A stretch of 10,049 bases of DNA, from the IMG/VR virus record IMGVR_UViG_2690316311_000018; one strand, written 5' to 3'. Origin of the DNA: a virus (taxonomy: Duplodnaviria; Heunggongvirae; Uroviricota; Caudoviricetes). Numbering within the stretch: position 1 is the first letter of the stretch; the number at the start of each line of letters is the position of its first letter. The position numbers and the translations under genes are program-made. Of the stretch, positions 1 to 6,986 are shown in pieces. The notes below the pieces were generated by a model. It did no database searches, was not told the origin of the DNA, and saw only the letters and a list, made by a program, of their open reading frames with translations.

Positions 1-435
1 CAAATGATGATTGATGGCTTATCAGAGCGTGGAAACGTCAATCACTGGCTGCTTAATGGCGGTGGCTGGTTCTTTAATCTCGATTACGACAAAGAAATTC
101 TGGCTAAAGCTCTTGCCCATAAAGCAGGTGAACTTCCGTTAATCATCGAACTGGTGAGCAAAGATAAAAAATATGTCATCTGCCACGCCGATTATCCTTG
201 TGACGAATACGAGTTTGGAAAGCCAGTTGATCATCAGCAGTTAATTTGGAACCGCGAACGAATCAGCAACTCACAAGACGGGATCGTGAAAGAAATCAAA
301 GGAGCGGACATGTTCATCTTTGGTCATACGCCAGCAGTGAAACCACTCAAGTTTGCCAACCAGATGTATATCGATACCGGCGCAGTGTTCTGCGGAAACC
401 TCACATTGATTCATGTACAGGGAGAAGGCGCATGA
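1..435 (+). CDS. ninI: Serine/threonine protein phosphatase, lambda NinI (ORF221)-type; 5'-partial, only the C-terminal ~144 aa are in the window
   Basis: Open frame from base 1 (codon 1-3 caa, then [15 protein letters not shown]...) to TGA at 433-435. From memory the sequence matches the C-terminal half of lambda protein phosphatase, including the GHTP motif typical of PPP-family phosphatases. Stop overlaps the next start (ATGA at 432-435). Confidence 0.85.
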
Positions 436-1055
436 GACTCGAAAGCGTAGCTAAATTTCATTCGCCAAAAAGCCCGATGATGAGCGACTCACCACGGGCT
501 ACGGCTTCTGACTCTCTTTCCGGTACTGATGTGATGGCTGCTATGGGGATGGCGCAATCACAAGCCGGATTCGGAATGGCTGCATTCTGCGGTAAGCATG
601 AACTCAGCCAGAACGACAAACAAAAGGCTATCAACTATCTGATGCAATTTGCACACAAGGTATCGGGGAAATACCGTGGCGTGGCAAAGCTTGAAGGAAA
701 TACTAAGGCAAAGGTACTGCAAGTGCTCGCAACATTCGCTTATGCGGATTATTGCCGTAGTGCCGCGACGCCGGGCGCAAGATGCAGAGATTGTCACGGT
801 ACAGGCCGTGCGGTTGATATAGCAAAAACAGAGCAGTGGGGGAGAGTTGTTGAGAAAGAGTGCGGAAGATGCAAAGGCGTCGGCTATTCAAGGATGCCAG
901 CAAGTGCCGCATATCGCGCTGTAACGATGCTAATCCCAAACCTTACTCAACCCACCTGGTCACGCACTGTTAAGCCGCTGTATGACGCTCTGGTGGTGCA
1001 ATGCCACAAGGAAGAGTCAATCGCAGACAACATTTTGAACGCGGTCACACGTTAG
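432..1055 (+). CDS. Q: Late-gene antitermination protein Q (lambda Q-type), 207 aa
   Basis: ATG at 432 preceded by GGGAGAAGG (419-427). Product [15 protein letters not shown]... with a Cys-x2-Cys ... Cys-x2-Cys zinc-binding arrangement, recalled as near-identical to lambda Q. The ORF track's start at 246 is a frame extension overlapping the phosphatase gene; 432 is the supported start. Confidence 0.9.
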
Positions 1056-1097
1056 CAGCATGATTGCCACGGATGGCAACATATTAACGGCATGATA

Positions 1098-1126
1098 TTG
1101 ACTTATTGAATAAAGTTGGGTAAATT
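1098..1126 (+). promoter_or_regulatory. Late promoter pR' (-35 TTGACT, 17-bp spacer, -10 TAAATT); the Q-utilisation (qut) site is expected to overlap it
   Basis: TTGACT at 1098-1103 and TAAATT at 1121-1126 with a 17-bp spacer, directly downstream of Q as in lambda. Predicted transcription start near 1133. Confidence 0.75.
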
Positions 1127-1132
1127 TGACCC

Positions 1133-1327
1133 AACGATGGGTTAATTCGCTCGTTGTGGTATTGAGATAAAAAGAGGCGGCGCTTACTACCGATTCCGCC
1201 CAGTTGGTCACTTCGACGTATCGTCTGGAACTCCAACCATCGCAGGCTGAGAGGTCTGCAAAATGCAATCCCGAAACAGTTCGCAGGTAATAGTTAGAGC
1301 CTGCATAACGGTTTCGGGATTTTTTAT
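1133..1327 (+). ncRNA. Short constitutive late leader transcript (lambda 6S RNA equivalent), pR' start to tR'
   Basis: Distance from the predicted start (~1133) to the end of the tR' U-tract (~1327) is ~194 nt, the length of lambda 6S RNA. No credible ORF inside. The 5' end is inferred, not observed. Confidence 0.6.
1268..1327 (+). terminator. Rho-independent terminator tR'
   Basis: Perfect 10-bp stem ATCCCGAAAC (1268-1277) / GTTTCGGGAT (1311-1320) enclosing an internal GCAGG/CCTGC sub-stem, followed by TTTTTTAT (1321-1328). Confidence 0.8.
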
Positions 1328-1335
1328 ATCTGTGT

Positions 1336-1602
1336 AACAGGTAAGAGCATTCTCCCTTATGGGGCTTGGCTTAAATGCACCGAGTGCTCTTATCGTTGTG
1401 GCAGCACAACGATAGTTTTCGTCAGAGTTGGCGACTTTGCGGTTTTTTAGAAACTGACCACAAAGATAAATGCAAACGATGATGTTGTTCTGATGGCGGC
1501 GTAATAGCCTGTAAGTCAGCAAGGTCTTCCGACTCCTTGTAAACAAATTCGGCGCACTGGCCCGGTGTGATTAATAATGGGCACACAACAGGTAAGAGCA
1601 TT
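1336..1602 (+). repeat. Exact 16-bp direct repeat AACAGGTAAGAGCATT (1336-1351 and 1587-1602) bounding a ~235-bp segment; each copy has a downstream inverted partner GAGTGCTCTT (1382-1391; 1671-1680)
   Basis: Read directly from the sequence. The repeats are 251 bp apart start to start. Each copy can pair with its partner as a ~10-bp long-range stem. Confidence 0.7.
1391..1414 (+). repeat. Perfect 10-bp palindrome / hairpin TATCGTTGTG-GCAG-CACAACGATA
   Basis: Arms at 1391-1400 and 1405-1414 are exact reverse complements with a 4-nt loop, followed by GTTTTCG. Lies inside the segment bounded by the direct repeats. Confidence 0.6.
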
Positions 1603-1830
1603 AAAGAACTGGCAAAGAGCTTAACGGTCTGCGAAAGCATTTCTTAGTGGCACAACTGGCCGGTACAACTGAGTGCTCTTTCCGGTGTGGTGAATGCGCA
1701 GGCTGATGCGCGCAGGAGAGCTTCGGAAGAACAAGGTGCCTGTATACAAGCCGGAGATCAGCGCCGGCCACCACAGCCAAATCCACCCAGAGCAAAACCG
1801 TTGTTCATCCTTACCATTCACTCAGTATTT

Positions 1831-1856
1831 TGGGCTACACCATCAGCCCATTTTTT
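1831..1856 (+). terminator. Candidate rho-independent terminator, + strand
   Basis: Stem TGGGCT (1831-1836) / AGCCCA (1845-1850), 8-nt loop, then TTTTTT (1851-1856). Confidence 0.5.
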
Positions 1857-1940
1857 AAAGCGTACTTCCACCAAGAACCAGACCTAACCAACTCATTGCT
1901 GACACTCTGTGGATACGGTTGTCTAGTACGCTTTAAAAAA
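1851..1940. repeat. Perfect 15-bp inverted repeat TTTTTTAAAGCGTAC (1851-1865) / GTACGCTTTAAAAAA (1926-1940) with a 60-bp spacer
   Basis: Read directly. The two arms supply the U-tracts of the two convergent terminator candidates. Confidence 0.7.
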
Positions 1941-1964
1941 GAAAACCCAGCATCAATGGCTGGG
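1933..1964 (-). terminator. Candidate rho-independent terminator, - strand, convergent with the one at 1831-1856
   Basis: Stem CCCAGC (1946-1951) / GCTGGG (1959-1964) with a 7-nt loop. On the - strand the hairpin is followed by TTTTCTTTTTT (complement of 1935-1945). Confidence 0.45.
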
Positions 1965-2127
1965 CTTCGTGATATGAGCGGCATGTATTGTTGGCGCAAT
2001 CCACGCCTGATTTGCTCATGAATGCGGTCACGAACAAACCCGTTACAAATCAACCGTAACCCGGATTTGTTCAAGCGACCATATCCATAATTCCTAATTT
2101 GAACAGATCCCCTTCTGGGGGTAAGAC

Positions 2128-2451
2128 ATGAAGATGCCAGAAAAACATGACCTGTTAGCCGCTATTCTCGCGGCAAAGGAACAAGGCATCGGGGCAATCC
2201 TTGCGTTTGCAATGGCGTACCTTCGCGGCAGATATAATGGCGGTGCGTTTACAAAAACAGTAATCGACGCAACGATGTGTGCCATTATCGCCTGGTTCAT
2301 TCGTGACCTTCTCGACTTCGCCGGACTAAGTAGCAATCTCGCTTATATAACGAGCGTGTTCATCGGCTACATCGGTACTGACTCGATTGGTTCGCTTATC
2401 AAACGCTTCGCTGCTAAAAAAGCCGGAGTAGAAGATGGTGGAAATCAATAA
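2128..2451 (+). CDS. S: Holin S (lambda S-type class I holin), 107 aa, with dual-start motif Met1-Lys2-Met3
   Basis: ATG AAG ATG at 2128-2136. Product [22 protein letters not shown]... with three hydrophobic segments and a charged C-terminus, recalled as near-identical to lambda S. Upstream GGGGGTAAGAC at 2117-2127. Confidence 0.92.
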
Positions 2452-2911
2452 TCAACGCAAGGCGTTCCTCGATATGCTGGCGTGGTCAGAGGGAACAGAT
2501 AATGGACGGCAGAAAACCAGAAATCATGGTTATGACGTCATTGTTGGCGGAGAGCTATTCACTGATTACTCCGATCATCCTCGCAAACTTGTCACGCTAA
2601 ACCCAAAACTCAAATCAACAGCCGCCGGACGTTACCAGCTTCTTTCCCGTTGGTGGGATGCCTATCGTAAGCAGCTTGGCCTGAAAGACTTCTCTCCCAA
2701 AAGCCAGGACGCTGTTGCGCTGCAGCAGATTAAAGAGCGTGGCGCTTTGCCGATGATTGATCGCGGTGATATTCGTCAGGCAATCGACCGTTGCAGCAAT
2801 ATCTGGGCTTCACTGCCGGGCGCTGGTTATGGTCAGTTCGAGCATAAGGCTGACAGCCTGATTGCAAAATTCAAAGAAGCGGGCGGAACGGTCAGAGAGA
2901 TTGAGGTATGA
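2435..2911 (+). CDS. R: Endolysin R (lambda R-type lytic transglycosylase), 158 aa
   Basis: ATG at 2435 overlaps the end of S. GGAG at 2423-2426. Product [24 protein letters not shown]..., recalled as near-identical to lambda R. Confidence 0.92.
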
Positions 2912-3345
2912 GCAGAGTCACCGCGATTATCTCCGCTCTGGTTATCTGCATCATCGTCTGCCTGTCATGGGCTGTTAATCATTACCGTGATAACGCCATG
3001 ACCTACAAAGAGCAGCGCGATAAAGCCACATCCATCATCGCTGATATGCAGAAGCGTCAACGTGATGTAGCAGAACTCGACGCCAGATACACAAAGGAGC
3101 TTGCTGATGCTAACGCTACTATCGAAAGCCTTCGTGCTGATGTTTCTGCTGGTCGTAAGCGCCTGCAAGTCGCCGCCACCTGTGCAAAGTCAACGACCGG
3201 AGCCAGCAGCATGGGCGATGGAGAAAGCCCAAGACTTACAGCAGATGCTGAACTCAATTATTACCGTCTCCGAAGTGGAATCGACAGGATAACCGCGCAG
3301 GTTAACTACCTGCAGGAGTACATCAGGACTCAGTGCCTGAAATAA
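2908..3345 (+). CDS. Rz: Spanin inner-membrane subunit Rz (i-spanin), 145 aa; lambda-like N-terminus, divergent periplasmic domain
   Basis: ATGA overlap with the R stop (2908-2911). N-terminal transmembrane segment [20 protein letters not shown], then a charged, likely coiled-coil region. The first ~30 aa match lambda Rz as I recall it; the remainder does not. Confidence 0.85.
3107..3292 (+). CDS. Rz1: Spanin outer-membrane lipoprotein subunit Rz1 (o-spanin), 61 aa, embedded in the +1 frame inside Rz
   Basis: ATG at 3107 with AAGGAG at 3094-3099 (7-nt spacing). Product [33 protein letters not shown]...: signal peptide with a V-S-A-C lipobox and a proline-rich mature part. The ORF track begins this frame two codons earlier at TTG 3101. 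Confidence 0.8.
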
Positions 3346-3376
3346 TTTTTTTGCAAATCACAAAGTCCATTTAATG

Positions 3377-3401
3377 AGCCTCGCGATGCGGGGCTTTTTT
3401 T
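3377..3401 (+). terminator. Rho-independent terminator downstream of Rz
   Basis: Stem GCCTCGC (3378-3384) / GCGGGGC (3388-3394) with one G-U wobble and a 3-nt loop, then TTTTTTT (3395-3401). Confidence 0.65.
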
Positions 3402-3550
3402 ACATCTGAATTTCACAGCGCATCTCACGCGCATATTACATCACCCGAGCCTTTCAGAAAGTTGAGCCTGAGAACTGCCGTATATGGTGGCGACCATCTC
3501 GGGGCGGCTTTTCTGTGAGACAGGCTCACTTTCTAAAAGGTAAAGACGCT

Positions 3551-4069
3551 ATGAATCATCAATTGGCTAATCTCGATTTCCGGGACATGGTGGTTGTTTC
3601 TGGTGATCGCGTGATCACAACCTCCCGCAAGGTAGCAGCTTACTTCGACAAGCAGCATCACCACATCATTCAGAAAATCGAAAAGCTAGACTGTTCGGAT
3701 GAATTTCTAACCAGCAACTTTTCGCGGGTTACCTATGAACACAAGGGTAATCAGTATGTTGAATATGAAATTTCCAAAGACGGTGCGATGTACATCATCA
3801 TGTCGTTTACCGGCAAAAAAGCTGCCGCCATCAAAGAGGCGTTTATCAAAGCATTTAATTGGATGCGTGACAGGCTGATGGAGATGGCTCACTCATACCA
3901 AAGAGAGCACAACGAGTTAATGCTGGAGTTCATGAAGGAAAAGGATGTTGCCAGTATGTCAGGACGCTTGCTGAACCGCTGGGGCAGGATCAAAAAACCG
4001 CAACTCATAGCAAGAATCAAAAGGCTTGAGCAGCAGGCGCAAATATCGATCCCCGGACTGCCAAAGTGA
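3551..4069 (+). CDS. Phage regulatory protein Rha-family (N-terminal Rha domain), ~172 aa
   Basis: Product MNHQLANLDFRDMVVVSGDRVITTSRKVAAYFDKQHHHIIQKIEKL... fits the Rha-domain N-terminal pattern. Start placed at ATG 3551 (weak AAGG upstream); the ORF track's longer version begins at GTG 3515 with no ribosome-binding site. The P22 gene order places rha just after the lysis genes. Confidence 0.7.
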   Translation: MNHQLANLDFRDMVVVSGDRVITTSRKVAAYFDKQHHHIIQKIEKLDCSDEFLTSNFSRVTYEHKGNQYVEYEISKDGAMYIIMSFTGKKAAAIKEAFIKAFNWMRDRLMEMAHSYQREHNELMLEFMKEKDVASMSGRLLNRWGRIKKPQLIARIKRLEQQAQISIPGLPK

Positions 4070-4352
4070 CCATTCCAAAGCCCATCTACGGGTGGGCTTG
4101 ATAATGAAACCGTGATTTACATCCCCACAATCCGGGTATGTAAAAGATAGTTCAGGCGAGAACAGATTTAACTAAATCTGTGCACCACCAGTTACGGCAG
4201 TACCGCGAAACAACCCAAGCCAGTAAGTGGGGAAATAACACTGGCAGCCACTGAAAGATGAACCTCCAGCCTTATGGCAAAAAAGATTCTTTGTGGTGGC
4301 GAACTGATGGAAAGACATCCTAATCAAGCAACCACTCTACAGGGTCATAATT

Positions 4353-4724
4353 ATGAACGACCAGCAAATCGAAAAAGAAATCGTTGAGAAAGGCAAAACG
4401 GCACCGCGAGTTACGCCAGACCATATCGAAGGAATTATTGCTCAGGAGGCATATTTCACAGCAGAGGATGGTGCCTTTGGCAAAGCCATAAAAGCGAAAC
4501 ATACTGGCGGAGAGGTAAACTACCAGTCGCACGAATCACTTTCTCTGCTGACGTTCTGCGTCCTGGTGCTGCGCAACGGCTTCACCGTCACCGGAGAGAG
4601 TGCCTGTGCAAGTCAGGAAAATTTTGATGCAGAAATTGGTCGGAAGATTGCCCGGCAGAATGCTGTAAACAAAATCTGGATGCTCGAAGGTTACTTGCTG
4701 AAGCAGAAGCTAAGCGAACAGTAG
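4353..4724 (+). CDS. Small phage protein, Gp49-like (N4 gp49 / Sf6 gp66 family), function unknown
   Basis: 123-aa ORF with AGGG 9 nt upstream. Family assignment is from memory of proteins found between lysis and terminase genes in P22/Sf6-like phages; not verified. Confidence 0.55.
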   Translation: MNDQQIEKEIVEKGKTAPRVTPDHIEGIIAQEAYFTAEDGAFGKAIKAKHTGGEVNYQSHESLSLLTFCVLVLRNGFTVTGESACASQENFDAEIGRKIARQNAVNKIWMLEGYLLKQKLSEQ

Positions 4725-4827
4725 TTATTACAAAAGCCATTCCTTACTGAGTGGCTTTGATAATGGCTTATACCCTACACGGGATAACTTAACTGATATC
4801 CCTTTTAACGGATAAACGGAGCCAACA

Positions 4828-5070
4828 ATGGCAGAGATTATTCCCATGACTGAAGAACAGAAATTCCAGTTAGAGATTTACAAACTGGTCATGAACCAGA
4901 ACGCAGCCGCGGAGGAAGCATTTCAGTTCATTGGCACTGACGAGCTGAAGCTTGAGCTATTCAAAATTCACTTCCAGTCAGGTGGCGCTAATTCAGATAT
5001 CACGACCCGCACAATCGAAGCGGTGCGTAAATCGAAGGAAGCGTTAGACCTGTTCACTACCGGAGCGTAA
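4828..5070 (+). CDS. Hypothetical small acidic phage protein, 80 aa
   Basis: ATG at 4828 with GGAG at 4816-4819. Same orientation and tight spacing as the neighbouring genes. No family recognised. Confidence 0.55.
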   Translation: MAEIIPMTEEQKFQLEIYKLVMNQNAAAEEAFQFIGTDELKLELFKIHFQSGGANSDITTRTIEAVRKSKEALDLFTTGA

Positions 5071-5072
5071 AC

Positions 5073-5144
5073 ATGGCAACTCAAGGTTTCGACAACCCAT
5101 CCAAATTCCGCGATGAATGGGATAAGCAAGCAGAAGGGAAATAA
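5073..5144 (+). CDS. Possible 23-aa leader micro-ORF (MATQGFDNPSKFRDEWDKQAEGK) immediately upstream of the small terminase gene
   Basis: ATG at 5073 with GGAG at 5062-5065 (7-nt spacing). Starts 2 nt after the previous stop and ends 5 nt before the terS start. Too short to judge by composition. Confidence 0.25.
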   Translation: MATQGFDNPSKFRDEWDKQAEGK

Positions 5145-5149
5145 TCAAT

Positions 5150-5575
5150 ATGGCGACTGAGAAAAAGAAAGGTGGTCGCCCCTCTGATTATATGCCGGAG
5201 GTGGCTAATGACATTTGCGCATTGCTTTCCTCCGGTGAGAGTCTGCGCAAAGTTTGCGAACGCCCAGGAATGCCGAGCAAAACATCAGTTTTTCGCTGGC
5301 TGGCTGAACATCAGGAGTTTCGTGACCAGTACGCGAAGGCAACAGAGACTCGGGCCGACTCTATTTTCGAAGAGATATTCGAAATTGCTGACGACGTAAT
5401 CCCTGATGCCGCCGAGGTGGCAAAGGCAAGACTTCGCGTTGATACCCGCAAATGGGCGCTGGCCCGAATGAATCCCCGTAAGTATGGCGACAAGGTAACT
5501 AACGAGCTTGTCGGCAAAGACGGCGGCGCAATCCAGATTGAAACATCACCGATGAGCACTCTATTCGGAAAATGA
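5150..5575 (+). CDS. Terminase small subunit (Sf6 gp1-type), 141 aa
   Basis: Product MATEKKKGGRPSDYMPEVANDICALLSSGESLRKVCERPGMP..., recalled as closely matching the Sf6 small terminase with an N-terminal helix-turn-helix-like region. Stop overlaps the terL start (ATGA at 5572-5575). Confidence 0.85.
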   Translation: MATEKKKGGRPSDYMPEVANDICALLSSGESLRKVCERPGMPSKTSVFRWLAEHQEFRDQYAKATETRADSIFEEIFEIADDVIPDAAEVAKARLRVDTRKWALARMNPRKYGDKVTNELVGKDGGAIQIETSPMSTLFGK

Positions 5576-6984
5576 CCTCGATTAATCCTATCTTTGAACC
5601 GTTCATTGAGGCGCATCGCTACAAAGTCGCCAAAGGCGGTCGAGGTAGCGGTAAGTCATGGGCAATTGCGAGGCTTCTTGTTGAAGCGGCGCGTCGGCAG
5701 CCTGTGCGTATTCTTTGCGCTCGTGAGCTGCAAAACAGTATCAGCGATTCGGTAATCAGGTTGCTTGAAGACACCATCGAGCGTGAAGGGTATTCGGCTG
5801 AGTTTGAAATTCAGCGTTCAATGATTCGTCATCTCGGAACGAATGCTGAATTCATGTTCTACGGCATCAAAAACAACCCGACGAAGATTAAATCGCTCGA
5901 AGGCATTGATATCTGCTGGGTGGAAGAAGCGGAAGCGGTAACGAAGGAATCGTGGGATATCCTGATTCCAACCATCCGTAAGCCGTTCTCTGAAATATGG
6001 GTAAGTTTCAACCCGAAAAACATCCTCGACGATACCTATCAGCGATTCGTCGTAAATCCTCCCGATGATATTTGCCTGCTGACGGTGAACTACACCGACA
6101 ACCCGCATTTTCCTGAAGTCCTCCGTCTGGAGATGGAAGAGTGTAAACGCAGAAATCCGACACTGTATCGTCACATCTGGCTTGGTGAGCCGGTAAGCGC
6201 AAGTGATATGGCAATCATCAAACGTGAATGGCTTGAAGCCGCAACCGATGCGCACACGAAACTCGGGTGGAAAGCGAAAGGTGCGGTTGTTTCTGCGCAT
6301 GACCCATCAGATACAGGGCCAGATGCTAAAGGTTATGCATCGCGTCACGGTTCGGTAGTTAAGCGCATTGCCGAAGGTCTGCTGATGGACATCAACGAGG
6401 GTGCTGACTGGGCTACTTCGCTGGCGATTGAAGACGGCGCTGACCATTACCTGTGGGACGGTGATGGCGTCGGTGCGGGCCTACGCAGACAGACAACGGA
6501 AGCATTCTCCGGCAAGAAAATTACCGCCACGATGTTCAAGGGTAGCGAATCGCCATTCGATGAAGATGGGCCTTATCAGGCCGGAGCATGGGCTGATGAA
6601 GTCGTACAGGGCGACAACGTTCGCACTATTGGCGATGTATTCCGCAATAAGCGAGCGCAATTCTATTACGCGCTGGCTGACAGGCTGTATCTGACATATC
6701 GGGCGGTTGTCCACGGTGAGTATGCAGACCCCGACGACATGCTGAGCTTCGACAAAGAAGCGATAGGCGAGAAGATGCTGGAGAAGCTGTTTGCAGAACT
6801 GACGCAGATTCAGCGCAAATTCAATAATAACGGGAAGCTGGAGCTTATGACTAAGGTCGAAATGAAGCAGAAGCTCGGTATCCCATCTCCTAACCTGGCT
6901 GATGCGCTGATGATGTGTATGCATTGCCCGGCATTGGTCCGCGAAGAAACAGAAATATACGTTCCCTCATCCTCCGGTTGGTAA
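5572..6984 (+). CDS. Terminase large subunit (P22/Sf6-type headful packaging ATPase-nuclease), 470 aa
   Basis: Walker A motif KGGRGSGKSW near the N-terminus and acidic nuclease-like C-terminal half. Length and N-terminus match my recollection of Sf6 gp2. Confidence 0.9.
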   Translation: MTSINPIFEPFIEAHRYKVAKGGRGSGKSWAIARLLVEAARRQPVRILCARELQNSISDSVIRLLEDTIEREGYSAEFEIQRSMIRHLGTNAEFMFYGIKNNPTKIKSLEGIDICWVEEAEAVTKESWDILIPTIRKPFSEIWVSFNPKNILDDTYQRFVVNPPDDICLLTVNYTDNPHFPEVLRLEMEECKRRNPTLYRHIWLGEPVSASDMAIIKREWLEAATDAHTKLGWKAKGAVVSAHDPSDTGPDAKGYASRHGSVVKRIAEGLLMDINEGADWATSLAIEDGADHYLWDGDGVGAGLRRQTTEAFSGKKITATMFKGSESPFDEDGPYQAGAWADEVVQGDNVRTIGDVFRNKRAQFYYALADRLYLTYRAVVHGEYADPDDMLSFDKEAIGEKMLEKLFAELTQIQRKFNNNGKLELMTKVEMKQKLGIPSPNLADALMMCMHCPALVREETEIYVPSSSGW

Positions 6985-6986
6985 AC

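Follow-up and report, generated by a model that had tools for sequence, protein, structure and literature searches.

A mosaic late-operon slot of a P22-like Escherichia coli prophage carries a predicted CBASS sponge of the Acb4 family

A cluster of three small genes between the lysis and packaging modules

The window, by which we mean the whole 10,049-nt stretch of DNA analyzed here, is 100% identical to NC_013361.1 (Escherichia coli O26:H11 str. 11368). Three open reading frames on which the initial annotation had focused were confirmed at 3551–4069, 4353–4724, and 4828–5070, and Pfam matches far above cut-off identify all three as genes rather than chance ORFs; RefSeq labels them in NC_013361.1 as Rha family, Gp49 family, and DUF2560 family. 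The flanks are also as first described. On the left lies the Rz spanin gene (2908–3345, plus strand; PF03245, E = 1.4e-36; phrog_13, E = 1.3e-72), within which Rz1 is embedded (3101–3292), and on the right the gene for an Sf6-type small terminase subunit (5150–5575, plus strand; PF20901, E = 1.1e-44; phrog_1482, E = 7e-67). The three small genes belong to the late operon of an E. coli O26:H11 prophage that is P22-like (Lederbergvirus-type) and in which the interval 3346–5149 would constitute a mosaic accessory slot that closes the lysis module. The scaffold gene of the same prophage holds an IS3-family element, so that there may no longer be a viable phage for the slot genes to serve.

Besides the three genes, the interval contains a hairpin resembling an intrinsic terminator just 3′ of Rz (3376–3396, plus strand), with nine pairs, six of them G-C, followed by TTTTTT; in phage epsilon34, the annotation places a Rho-independent terminator at the homologous site. 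Close to the right border, a candidate 23-codon ORF (MATQGFDNPSKFRDEWDKQAEGK; 5073–5144, plus strand) can be read from the sequence. It carries no RefSeq annotation, and its position is occupied in relatives by hkbN, orf59c, or Sf6 gene 68. Rfam searches (E up to 1) returned nothing in 3346–5149, the sole matches being weak tmRNA-like ones at 1450–1553, and no tRNA was detected anywhere in the window.

The first gene of the slot (3551–4069, plus strand) encodes a basic protein of 172 aa (pI 9.5) and starts at the same ATG as in RefSeq. Its initial assignment to the Rha family is borne out by PF09669 (84.1 bits, cut-off 29.9, E = 1e-23), TIGR02681 (76 bits, cut-off 45.95, E = 2e-21), and phrog_518 (E = 1e-79), and PF10549 (84 bits, E = 8e-24) marks a C-terminal ORF11CD3 domain. 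The protein is identical to Rha of phage JEP4 (100%) and shares 45% identity over 99% of its length with Rha of P22, where rha directly follows gene 15/Rz1, the same position as in the window. It would accordingly represent the counterpart of the non-essential P22 rha and, as a putative regulator by its family annotation, one of several exchangeable genes of the DNA-binding regulator type that appear to alternate at a variable position of the slot ("position B"; Rha types, KilA-N, and T5orf172 in relatives).

The 123-aa protein belongs to the Acb4 family

The second gene (4353–4724, plus strand) encodes a protein of 123 aa that the initial annotation had correctly named Gp49-like. It matches PF13876 (Phage_gp49_66), the family of N4 Gp49 and Sf6 gp66, over all 82 profile positions (1–82) with 117.5 bits (cut-off 27, E = 3.7e-34). 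The accompanying remark that its function is unknown has been superseded, as PF13876 corresponds to Acb4, a family of anti-CBASS proteins that act as sponges for cyclic dinucleotides (Chang et al., bioRxiv 10.1101/2024.12.30.630793). Table S3 of that study, which lists the 1,331 homologues defining the published family, contains the exact 123-aa sequence under A0A136RQH1 (Escherichia coli) and also includes Sf6 gp66 (10.1101/2024.12.30.630793). By sequence, the 123-aa protein is therefore a catalogued member of the Acb4 family. On the same Pfam profile, the Acb4 protein of phage SPO1 scores 35.5 bits, compared with 117.5 bits for the 123-aa protein, and a direct phmmer search links the latter to the Acb4 structure 9e4w (E = 0.0058). 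Identities amount to 47% with N4 gp49 and, in the YH6-type Acb4-Sequestin fusion, to 44% with the Acb4 domain. N4 acb4 has been reported to activate the Panoptes system (10.64898/2026.06.04.730250).

Structure prediction agrees with this assignment. The Acb4 protomer consists of a three-stranded antiparallel sheet, N-terminal helices, and a long C-terminal helix (PDB 9e4w), and the AF2 model of the 123-aa protein (pLDDT 85) displays this arrangement, with strands at 29–36, 66–73, and 78–84 and a helix at 93–121. When the model was compared with the PDB using Foldseek, the best 13 matches were all 9e4w chains (probability 1.0, target-normalised TM 0.55–0.69), and the next match had E = 0.25. 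The motif spanning the core beta-sheet and the C-terminal helix (NGFTVTGESACASxENFDAEIGRKIA), which the family conserves more strongly than any other part, is intact.

Predicted ligand and role of the Acb4-family protein

Cyclic-dinucleotide binding and rescue of phage on CBASS hosts have been demonstrated for SPO1 Acb4, and eight homologues have been examined for binding only; all eight bound 3′3′-cGAMP (Chang et al., 10.1101/2024.12.30.630793). Homologues from phages of Gram-negative hosts additionally bind 3′3′-cAA. The Acb4 homotetramer forms a pinwheel with four inter-protomer pockets, and AF3 predicted high-confidence tetramers for all eight homologues modelled (10.1101/2024.12.30.630793). 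Binding together with phage growth on CBASS hosts has also been reported for an Acb4-Tad2 fusion. By analogy with these relatives, the 123-aa protein would form a homotetramer and trap the cyclic dinucleotides of CBASS; the host effector would then stay inactive, allowing the phage to escape abortive infection. Likely ligands are 3′3′-cGAMP and, judging from the homologues in phages of Gram-negative hosts, c-di-AMP-type signals. Whereas family membership is directly established, the tetramer, the ligand, and the phenotype are proposed by homology.

We further compared the residues that contact the ligand in SPO1 Acb4 (K36, F48, E49, V56, Y57, F62, N63, I66, T70, and K81). Three of the ten are kept in the 123-aa protein, F48, F62, and I66 being equivalent to F77, F91, and I95. 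The two residues that read the guanine, K36 and E49, are replaced by L65 and T78, the backbone-contacting N63 by D92, and V56, Y57, T70, and K81 by C85, A86, I99, and M110. With seven of ten contacts changed, including both guanine-specific residues, the ligand specificity may differ from 3′3′-cGAMP. The 123-aa protein also possesses a 20-residue N-terminal extension that forms an extra helix and a hypervariable insert (aa 41–62) adjoining the residue aligned with K36, neither of which is found in SPO1 Acb4. Such differences would fit a genuine PF13876 protein whose ligand or role is other than CBASS 3′3′-cGAMP, for example a 2′,3′-cAA-type signal, cyclic trinucleotides, or, given that the Acb4 fold resembles dsRBD proteins (10.1101/2024.12.30.630793), RNA. 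In the same direction point the 3′3′-cAA binding noted above and the Pseudomonas phage Acb4-Sequestin fusion Ab09 gp59, a sponge that binds 2′,3′-cAA and, only weakly, cGAMP (10.64898/2026.06.04.730250). Even so, we consider a different ligand or role unlikely: 3′3′-cGAMP was bound by every one of the eight diverse homologues, and the most conserved motif of the family is preserved here. Because divergent homologues still bind cGAMP (10.1101/2024.12.30.630793), the SPO1 contact residues do not strictly define the family. Sequestration of CBASS signals remains our preferred reading for the 123-aa protein.

The 283-bp gap is non-coding and precedes the acb4 ORF

Rha and acb4 are separated by a non-coding stretch of exactly 283 bp (4070–4352), which had initially been described as unusually long and structured. 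Its length stands, and the sequence folds better than shuffled versions (z = −2.8; 2 of 200 shuffles as good). This signal stems from three plus-strand hairpins in the first part of the gap (4078–4099, 4116–4144, and 4162–4181), which were seen in the MFE and centroid folds of 4070–4352; none of them is followed by a T-run, and the first is also carried by Stx2 phages. The description does not extend to 4185–4330, which shows no significant structure on either strand (z = −1.1 and −1.5).

This second part harbors a conserved non-coding core of roughly 125 nt (4194–4319), which emerged from a search of phage records and a five-phage alignment. It is present in 191 phage records with 90–100% identity and is at least 93–95% identical in P22, HK620, HK97, and Sf6. 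Its carriers include both podoviruses (P22, Sf6, and HK620) and siphoviruses (HK97 and HK022), and in every case variable genes flank it; in P22, HK620, HK97, HK022, Sf6, and ST64T, it sits 3′ of whichever accessory gene the respective phage has. The aligned columns are nearly invariant, but the phages differ by indels of 1 nt and 2 nt, which are incompatible with a shared ORF. Candidates for a hidden gene were discarded accordingly: a minus-strand ORF of 51 aa (4172–4327) and the plus-strand frames are broken by these indels, and the ST64T "Orf-118", with its start inside the core, is DUF2560 annotated from a point 38 codons too far upstream.

The acb4 gene follows the core directly as an ORF-only cassette of 403 bp (4320–4722, plus strand), composed of a 33-bp leader and the ORF as delimited by alignment and sequence. 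Relative to HK620, P22, and HK97, it is inserted between "GACATC" and the "GTTATT...hairpin" leader belonging to DUF2560, beside the site of the P22 pid moron, and the junction in Sf6 is identical. Downstream of the cassette, a hairpin (AAAGCCA...TGGCTTT, then GATAATGG; 4733–4758, plus strand) was recognized from sequence and alignment as homologous to the one located directly 3′ of the core in HK620, HK97, and P22. The gap is no gene in itself; rather, it combines hairpins with a conserved linker at which cassettes have been inserted, namely acb4 here and in Sf6 and pid in P22.

Conservation of the core across podovirus and siphovirus records, always between variable genes, might instead reflect a function of its own beyond that of a recombination linker, such as a small RNA, a site for processing or pausing of the late transcript, or a micro-ORF. 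The latter would be in line with an ORF of 21–28 codons (MNLQPYGKKDSLWWRTDGKTS...) inside the core that is kept in five of five aligned phages; it has, however, no good ribosome-binding site. The core is also no more conserved than neighboring coding DNA of this gene pool (Rz and DUF2560, 93–97% identical), its fold energy is ordinary on both strands, it belongs to no Rfam family, and its variation is too low for a covariation test. We therefore regard such a functional element as quite unlikely and favor the linker.

Gene content of the slot in related phages

The view that the interval between Rz and the terminase is a cargo slot is corroborated by its content in relatives. Among 72 IMG/VR loci sharing an identical DUF2560 protein, we counted about 30 slot architectures. 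Predicted sponges of immune signals recur in these loci (Acb4 in 16 of 72, Tad2-like in 4 of 72, and Acb2-like in 1 of 72), and the Acb4 gene, where present, is always the last one before DUF2560. The Tad2-like protein encoded by phage Huey also maps to this slot, as does Kapi1_043. For the homologue of gp66 in phage Huey, we found no support for its "anti-CRISPR protein" label; a neighboring protein of 166 aa, also labelled anti-CRISPR, is Tad2-like and AcrIIA7-like, which probably explains the label. The interval is a known mosaic cargo slot that acts as an anti-signalling hotspot.

The comparison further bears on whether the cluster merely consists of ordinary late-region proteins found in every relative, a possibility raised at the outset. 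Half of this holds. All three proteins have confident homologues in the P22/Sf6 late region, whereas near-universal presence is confined to DUF2560; relatives may or may not carry Rha and Acb4. With all three proteins in named phage families, the cluster is ordinary, largely explained, and composed of already known cargo.

Two points follow for annotation and for the search for new functions. RefSeq still uses the name "Gp49 family protein", even though the family has a defined anti-CBASS function, and the acb4 gene occurs in about 526 of 5,426 complete E. coli genomes (306 full length), including EHEC O26:H11. As a modest addition, the Rz-DUF2560 interval of P22-like phages recurrently holds three families of immune-signal sponges, which makes unassigned genes of the interval, and DUF2560 itself, reasonable candidates for new counter-defence proteins.

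DUF2560 is the constant gene of the slot

The third gene (4828–5070, plus strand) encodes an 80-aa protein whose acidic nature, noted initially, is confirmed (pI 4.7, net charge −5). It had been considered impossible to place; it does, however, match PF10834 over all 72 profile positions (1–72; 147.7 bits, cut-off 25, E = 1.1e-43) and belongs to the DUF2560 family together with P22 Orf80, HK620 HkbM, and Sf6 gp67. The protein is 98.8% identical to that of P22 and 100% identical to several other phage proteins. DUF2560 is found in 171 phage records and in 899 of 5426 complete E. coli genomes and is near-universal in enterobacterial P22-like phages, and the gene is dispensable in P22. The family is nevertheless narrow, with 93 clusters at 90% identity and 74 representatives retrieved by profile search among 1.84 billion proteins. 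These 74 matches yielded no informative domain fusions: almost all are stand-alone proteins of about 75–100 aa, and the small number of longer matches resemble artefacts of frameshifts or low complexity.

The AF2 model (pLDDT 81) contains four helices and suggests a four-helix bundle; neither fold nor profile searches matched DUF2560 to anything characterised. A resemblance to Sequestin (PF21825), a short helical anti-Thoeris sponge that is often fused or adjacent to Acb4, was considered, as DUF2560 is likewise short, all-helical, phage-restricted, and encoded beside an Acb4 gene. It was rejected: hhalign of a DUF2560 alignment gave a probability of 1.5% against Sequestin domains taken from Acb4-Sequestin fusions, with a Sequestin alignment of only four sequences, and none of 25 DUF2560 members matched PF21825 at E up to 10. 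DUF2560 is moreover acidic, whereas the pockets of sponges are typically positively charged.

DUF2560 is a conserved and dispensable gene that anchors the slot just 5′ of the small terminase gene. As a best guess, its product may be small and acidic in order to bind other proteins, whether as a factor directed at the host or its defence or as a modulator of a late stage, and would be neither a nucleotide sponge nor a DNA binder. A more specific proposal is that it serves in anti-defence or host takeover as the anchor of the anti-signalling hotspot, acting through protein binding without nucleotide sequestration. What suggests this is that nearly all enterobacterial P22-like phages have the gene although it can be dispensed with in the laboratory, that it always adjoins the position at which the Acb4, Tad2-like, and Acb2-like sponges are inserted, and that its small, acidic, helical product resembles nothing characterised. 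We judge this specific role to be rather improbable.

Its position next to the small terminase gene (terS) raises the alternative that DUF2560 is not cargo and is always kept there because it assists in packaging DNA or in building the head. The gene lies just 5′ of terS, in some cases separated from it by one or two small ORFs, in P22, Sf6, HK620, epsilon34, ST64T, Kapi1, phiKp_30, and the window. A distant relative is located upstream of a lambda-type terminase, and the number of phage records with DUF2560 (about 143–171) is close to that with a P22-type portal (about 182). Conversely, DUF2560 is linked to at least three unrelated types of terS, which argues against a specific partner, and one distant relative follows NinX/NinH, away from terS. 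A dedicated packaging or assembly factor appears distinctly improbable to us, and we retain the broader guess of a protein-binding factor.

Probable expression with the late operon

Region 1056–1351 of the window is 97% identical to the lambda pR′/qut leader. A simple consensus scan revealed no sigma-70-like site upstream of Rha, acb4, or DUF2560; within 3200–5300, two promoter-like sites were found against 2.7 expected, one of them inside acb4 and the other on the minus strand. Since the three genes are co-oriented and have no detectable promoters of their own, we infer that a lambda-type late promoter drives them along with the lysis and head genes, with Q antitermination allowing transcription to read through the hairpins. 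The classical hallmarks of a moron are missing: the scan found no upstream promoter-like site, the downstream hairpins have no T-runs, and the leader of acb4 measures 33 bp.

The Tad2-like gene in the slot of phage Kapi1 was the highest-expressed phage gene in lysogen cultures (PMC12922286), so that slot genes may have expression of their own, or the signal may reflect spontaneous induction. [quoted passage not shown] The initial annotation leaned this way, considering the cluster the likeliest place for anything host-interacting in the window. Apart from the Kapi1 signal, a hairpin after each of the three slot genes and the use of the slot as a known moron site, with P22 pid acting there on host dgo expression (PMC3573128), would be compatible with this idea. 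Against it, the genes follow the orientation of the late operon, whereas pid is divergent, and acb4 is an ORF-only cassette. In addition, the only gene from a functionally characterised family is an anti-defence gene, which benefits a replicating phage. A search of PADLOC-DB 2.0 gave no significant match for the three proteins, the best being Rha versus PDC-S05 (E = 0.005, 14 bits). The initial statement that nothing here resembles a known defence or toxin system accordingly stands for defence; what it overlooked is a known anti-defence family. We consider lysogenic-conversion cargo very improbable.

Taken together, it is highly probable that the locus is a mosaic slot of the late operon that comprises a Rha gene, a predicted CBASS sponge of the Acb4 family, a dispensable DUF2560 gene, and a non-genic 283-bp gap.

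Comparison with known systems

A close counterpart is the interval of P22, which reads rha - orf25 - pid - orf80 - orf59c - gene 3 (Cenens et al. 2013, PMC3573128; PMC8835761) and in which the pid moron occupies a documented insertion site between orf25 and orf80 (PMC3573128). Both intervals lie between Rz and the small terminase gene, begin with a Rha homologue, end with Orf80 (DUF2560), and have the conserved non-coding block after the first gene. They differ in their inserts: pid, a divergent gene equipped with a promoter and a terminator of its own, is situated 3′ of the hairpin common to both intervals, whereas acb4 in the window is co-oriented, ORF-only, and located 5′ of that hairpin. 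In Sf6, genes 66 and 67 are direct homologues of the 123-aa and 80-aa genes, and the upstream non-coding block and the junction are alike. There, however, gene 65, encoding a 50-aa membrane-type protein, replaces Rha, and the middle of gp66 is unrelated to that of the 123-aa protein. Klebsiella phage phiKp_30 shows the same gene order as the window (Rha - Gp49 - DUF2560 - terminase).

At the protein level, the predicted fold of the 123-aa protein matches PDB 9e4w and nothing else in the PDB, with a sequence identity to SPO1 Acb4 of only 25% and the N-terminal and insert differences described above. The settings differ as well, SPO1 being a Bacillus phage and the 123-aa protein being encoded in the late operon of a temperate podovirus.

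With respect to anti-signalling hot spots, the window is distinguished by its single sponge, by the Rha, KilA-N, or T5orf172 genes that the slot also holds in most relatives, and by its location in a late operon rather than an early region. It shares with the Acb4-Sequestin/Bes1/Bes2 locus of N4-like Pseudomonas phages (10.64898/2026.06.04.730250) the use of one position for different sponge families in related phages, and the Tad2-like Kapi1_043 of a Lederbergvirus (PMC12922286) sits in this very slot.

A P22-like late region with three accessory genes

The window comes from a P22-like (Lederbergvirus-type) prophage, of which it forms the late region; its positions 1-9306 are 100% identical to E. 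coli O26:H11 str. 11368 (NC_013361.1). The plus strand carries, in order, a NinI phosphatase gene (4-435), the Q antiterminator gene (ending at 1055), a non-coding late leader of 1.07 kb (1056-2127), and genes for the holin (2128-2451), endolysin (2435-2911), Rz/Rz1 (2908-3345), the Rha, Acb4, and DUF2560 proteins (3551-5070), an Sf6-type small terminase (5150-5575), the large terminase (5572-6984), the portal (start 6987 in RefSeq, end 9113; the longest ORF opens at a GTG at 6915), and the scaffold (start 9127). Over its initial 296 bp, this leader shares 97% identity with the lambda pR'/qut region, and 74% of 1056-2127 matches HK620. It contains no annotated gene and no tRNA, while two tRNAs are found at that place in Sf6; tmRNA-like Rfam matches at 1450-1553 are weak and far under threshold.

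An IS3-family element, whose transposase gene is on the minus strand (9349-10038), breaks the scaffold gene near 9306, ~60 codons from its start; head building has therefore probably been lost in this prophage. The full-length window is 100% identical in a few other strains, where the IS3-family element also follows position 9306, and most other strains, O26:H11 str. 11368 among them, carry the same prophage uninterrupted.

All three ORFs between the Rz and small terminase genes lie where the initial annotation had placed them, and each product scores far above the threshold of a curated family, so that all three can be placed in named families. As had been stated at the outset, they give no sign of resemblance to a defence or toxin system.

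Rha and DUF2560 proteins

The 172-aa protein (3551-4069, plus strand) is a standard Rha + ORF11CD3 protein, matching PF09669 (Rha) and PF10549 (ORF11CD3) at 84 bits each as well as TIGR02681 and phrog_518. Phage JEP4 encodes an identical Rha (100%), and the Rha found at this position in P22 shares 45% identity. The rha gene of P22/phi80, named for interference with phage growth in IHF-deficient hosts, is non-essential.

The 80-aa protein (4828-5070, plus strand), correctly described as acidic (pI 4.7), had been left unplaced. It is, in fact, a member of PF10834 (DUF2560; 147.7 bits), the family of P22 Orf80, and shares 96-100% identity with the products of P22 orf80, HK620 hkbM, and Sf6 gene 67, with those of Sf101 and phiKp_30, and with many others. 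The family is narrow: its 93 clusters, drawn from 5.8 billion proteins, all come from Enterobacterales, and a profile search gave only 74 representatives among 1.84 billion. The phage collection holds 171 records (143 full length) in two subtypes of ~95% and ~43% identity, compared with ~182 phage records for the P22-type portal, and among complete E. coli genomes 899 of 5,426 encode a member. The AF2 model predicts a four-helix bundle (pLDDT 81). Profile comparisons revealed no relationship to Sequestin, a helical sponge often found beside Acb4.

Since P22 derivatives with an orf25-pid-orf80 deletion are viable, and since DUF2560 is linked to several unrelated terS types, we rank a protein-binding accessory role above a role in packaging. 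One distant relative lies upstream of a lambda-type terminase, and a second follows NinX/NinH, adjoining an inverted P22-type head module. In a distant P22-like element (a contig of NCBI GCA_013573015.1; 184-552 and 4001-4237), where a DUF2560 relative follows NinX/NinH, a PF13876 (Acb4-family) gene is found at the far end of an inverted head module, the two families co-occurring without being adjacent.

The HK97-like siphoviruses HK75, HK446, mEp506, mEpX1, and mEp235 keep only the first 27-28 codons of the DUF2560 gene (~93% identity), apparently a scar left by recombination where their own packaging module joins. Orf-118 of ST64T (1648-2004 of the compared locus) is a DUF2560 gene whose annotated start lies 38 codons too far upstream, inside the conserved non-coding block described below. 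A 23-codon ORF (5073-5144; MATQGFDNPSKFRDEWDKQAEGK), absent from the RefSeq annotation, occupies the gap between the DUF2560 and small terminase genes; P22 orf59c, HK620 hkbN, and Sf6 gene 68 (59-63 aa, no family) are found at the same place.

A member of the Acb4 anti-CBASS family

The 123-aa protein (4353-4724, plus strand) had been recorded as Gp49-like and of unknown function. Its family, PF13876 (Phage_gp49_66; 117.5 bits), is however the described anti-defence family Acb4 (anti-CBASS 4), which comprises 1,331 homologues; Acb4 itself forms a tetramer that acts as a sponge, taking up 3'3'-cGAMP and related signals of CBASS (Chang et al, bioRxiv 10.1101/2024.12.30.630793). [quoted passage not shown] The family table of that study lists the exact 123-aa sequence (A0A136RQH1, E. 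coli), along with Sf6 gp66. The acb4 gene of N4 is reported to activate the sponge-sensing system Panoptes, and an Acb4 fusion of a Pseudomonas phage to act as a sponge for cGAMP and 2',3'-cAA (10.64898/2026.06.04.730250).

Of the searches initially suggested for the 123-aa and 80-aa proteins, profile-HMMs placed both in named families, and structure prediction gave an Acb4 fold match for the former. A phmmer search of PDB sequences returned a single meaningful match, Acb4 of Bacillus phage SPO1 (PDB 9e4w, E 0.0058), aligned across the conserved core (residues 66-108 of the 123-aa protein). With the AF2 model (pLDDT 85; 31 homologues as input), the best 13 Foldseek matches in the PDB are all 9e4w chains (probability 1.0, TM 0.55-0.69), and nothing beyond 9e4w falls under E 0.25. 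Identity to the 123-aa protein is 47% for N4 gp49, 44% for the Acb4 domain of the YH6-type Acb4-Sequestin fusion, and 25% for SPO1 Acb4. Because SPO1 Acb4 scores only 35.5 bits against PF13876, compared with 117.5 here, the protein is a central member of the family. Its membership is thus established, while a tetrameric state, the ligand, and the phenotype are predicted by homology.

Only 3 of the 10 ligand contacts of SPO1 Acb4 are kept, the guanine-reading K36 and E49 being replaced by L65 and T78. This is consistent with the wider ligand range described for homologues whose phages infect Gram-negative hosts, and the exact ligand may differ from 3'3'-cGAMP. Among enterobacterial homologues at least 70% identical overall, residues 41-62 (window 4473-4538) are hypervariable and unalignable, while residues 1-40 and 63-123 are almost invariant. 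The hypervariable segment, which ends beside the residue aligned with K36, might influence which ligand is bound, or might be no more than a loop that tolerates change.

The acb4 cassette and its non-coding flanks

The gap upstream of acb4 (4070-4352) had been described as long and structured. Its length is 283 bp, and its fold is more stable than those of shuffled sequences (z = -2.8); three hairpins in the first 112 nt account for this signal, the remainder being unexceptional against shuffles. A sensitive blastn search with the gap matched 191 phage records, each with at least 90% identity. In a five-phage alignment, a block of ~125 nt (4194-4319) is almost invariant in P22, HK620, HK97, and Sf6; it lies directly after the rha stop codon in P22, after hkbL in HK620, and between gp73 and the HNH gene gp74 in HK97. 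One- and two-nucleotide indels in the alignment exclude a shared ORF. The block is about as conserved as neighbouring genes in the same gene pool, and we read it as a probable recombination linker rather than a functional RNA.

In HK620, HK97, and P22, the block runs directly into 'GGTTATTGCAGAGGCC...hairpin...AATGGCTTATACC', which in HK620 goes on to form the DUF2560 leader. In the window and Sf6, 403 bp (4320-4722 here) separate the block from that hairpin. This insert consists of a 33-bp leader and the acb4 ORF, with homology resuming right at the stop codon, so that acb4 is a minimal ORF-only cassette. The pid moron of P22 is found on the 3' side of this hairpin, a few dozen bases further along. 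Hairpins after the Rha gene (4078-4106) and acb4 (4733-4765) share the pattern AAAGCC...GGCTT(T)GATAATG, and similar hairpin-plus-GATAATG units stand at the same junctions in HK620, HK97, P22, and Stx2 phages; such units may mark cassette exchange points.

A consensus scan found no sigma-70-like promoters upstream of the Rha, acb4, and DUF2560 genes, and among the slot hairpins only the one after Rz is followed by a T-run. From this we infer that the slot genes are expressed within the Q-antiterminated late transcript.

The slot across relatives

The proposal that the Rz-to-terminase interval is a cargo slot was borne out by comparison of its gene content across relatives. Among 80 IMG/VR loci encoding a DUF2560 protein 99-100% identical to that of the window, 72 have an Rz gene upstream, and these yielded 70 distinct interval sequences in ~30 architectures. 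The variable gene mostly encodes a DNA-binding type of regulator (three Rha types, 29/72 together; KilA-N, 16/72; T5orf172, 3/72), and an Sf6-gp65-like small protein is optional (36/72). The Acb4 gene is likewise optional (16/72), and always the last before DUF2560. Tad2-like proteins (PF11195, E 1.7e-24; PDB matches to Tad2 and AcrIIA7) occupy the slot in four of the 72 loci (L015, L032, L036, L083) and in phages Huey and Kapi1. A single locus of the 72 (L023, UViG_3300045988_027816), whose DUF2560 protein is identical, has an Acb2-like protein of 94 aa (PF24729, E 3.5e-18; PDB matches to T4 Vs.4 and PaMx33 p26, E 2e-8), its gene preceded by an unassigned 95-aa ORF. At least one sponge is present in 19 of the 72 loci. 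The interval is therefore both a slot for regulator genes and a hotspot for genes that inhibit immune signalling by nucleotides. Kapi1_043, the Tad2-like gene of this slot, reportedly has the highest expression of any Kapi1 gene in cultures of the lysogen (PMC12922286). In the public record of Huey, the Tad2-like protein (1925-2425 of the compared locus) and the Acb4 homologue (2660-3040) are both labelled "anti-CRISPR protein", which are annotation slips.

The cluster is ordinary and essentially explained, except for the role of the conserved but dispensable DUF2560 protein. The most interesting of its three products, Acb4, belongs to an anti-defence family that has already been described.
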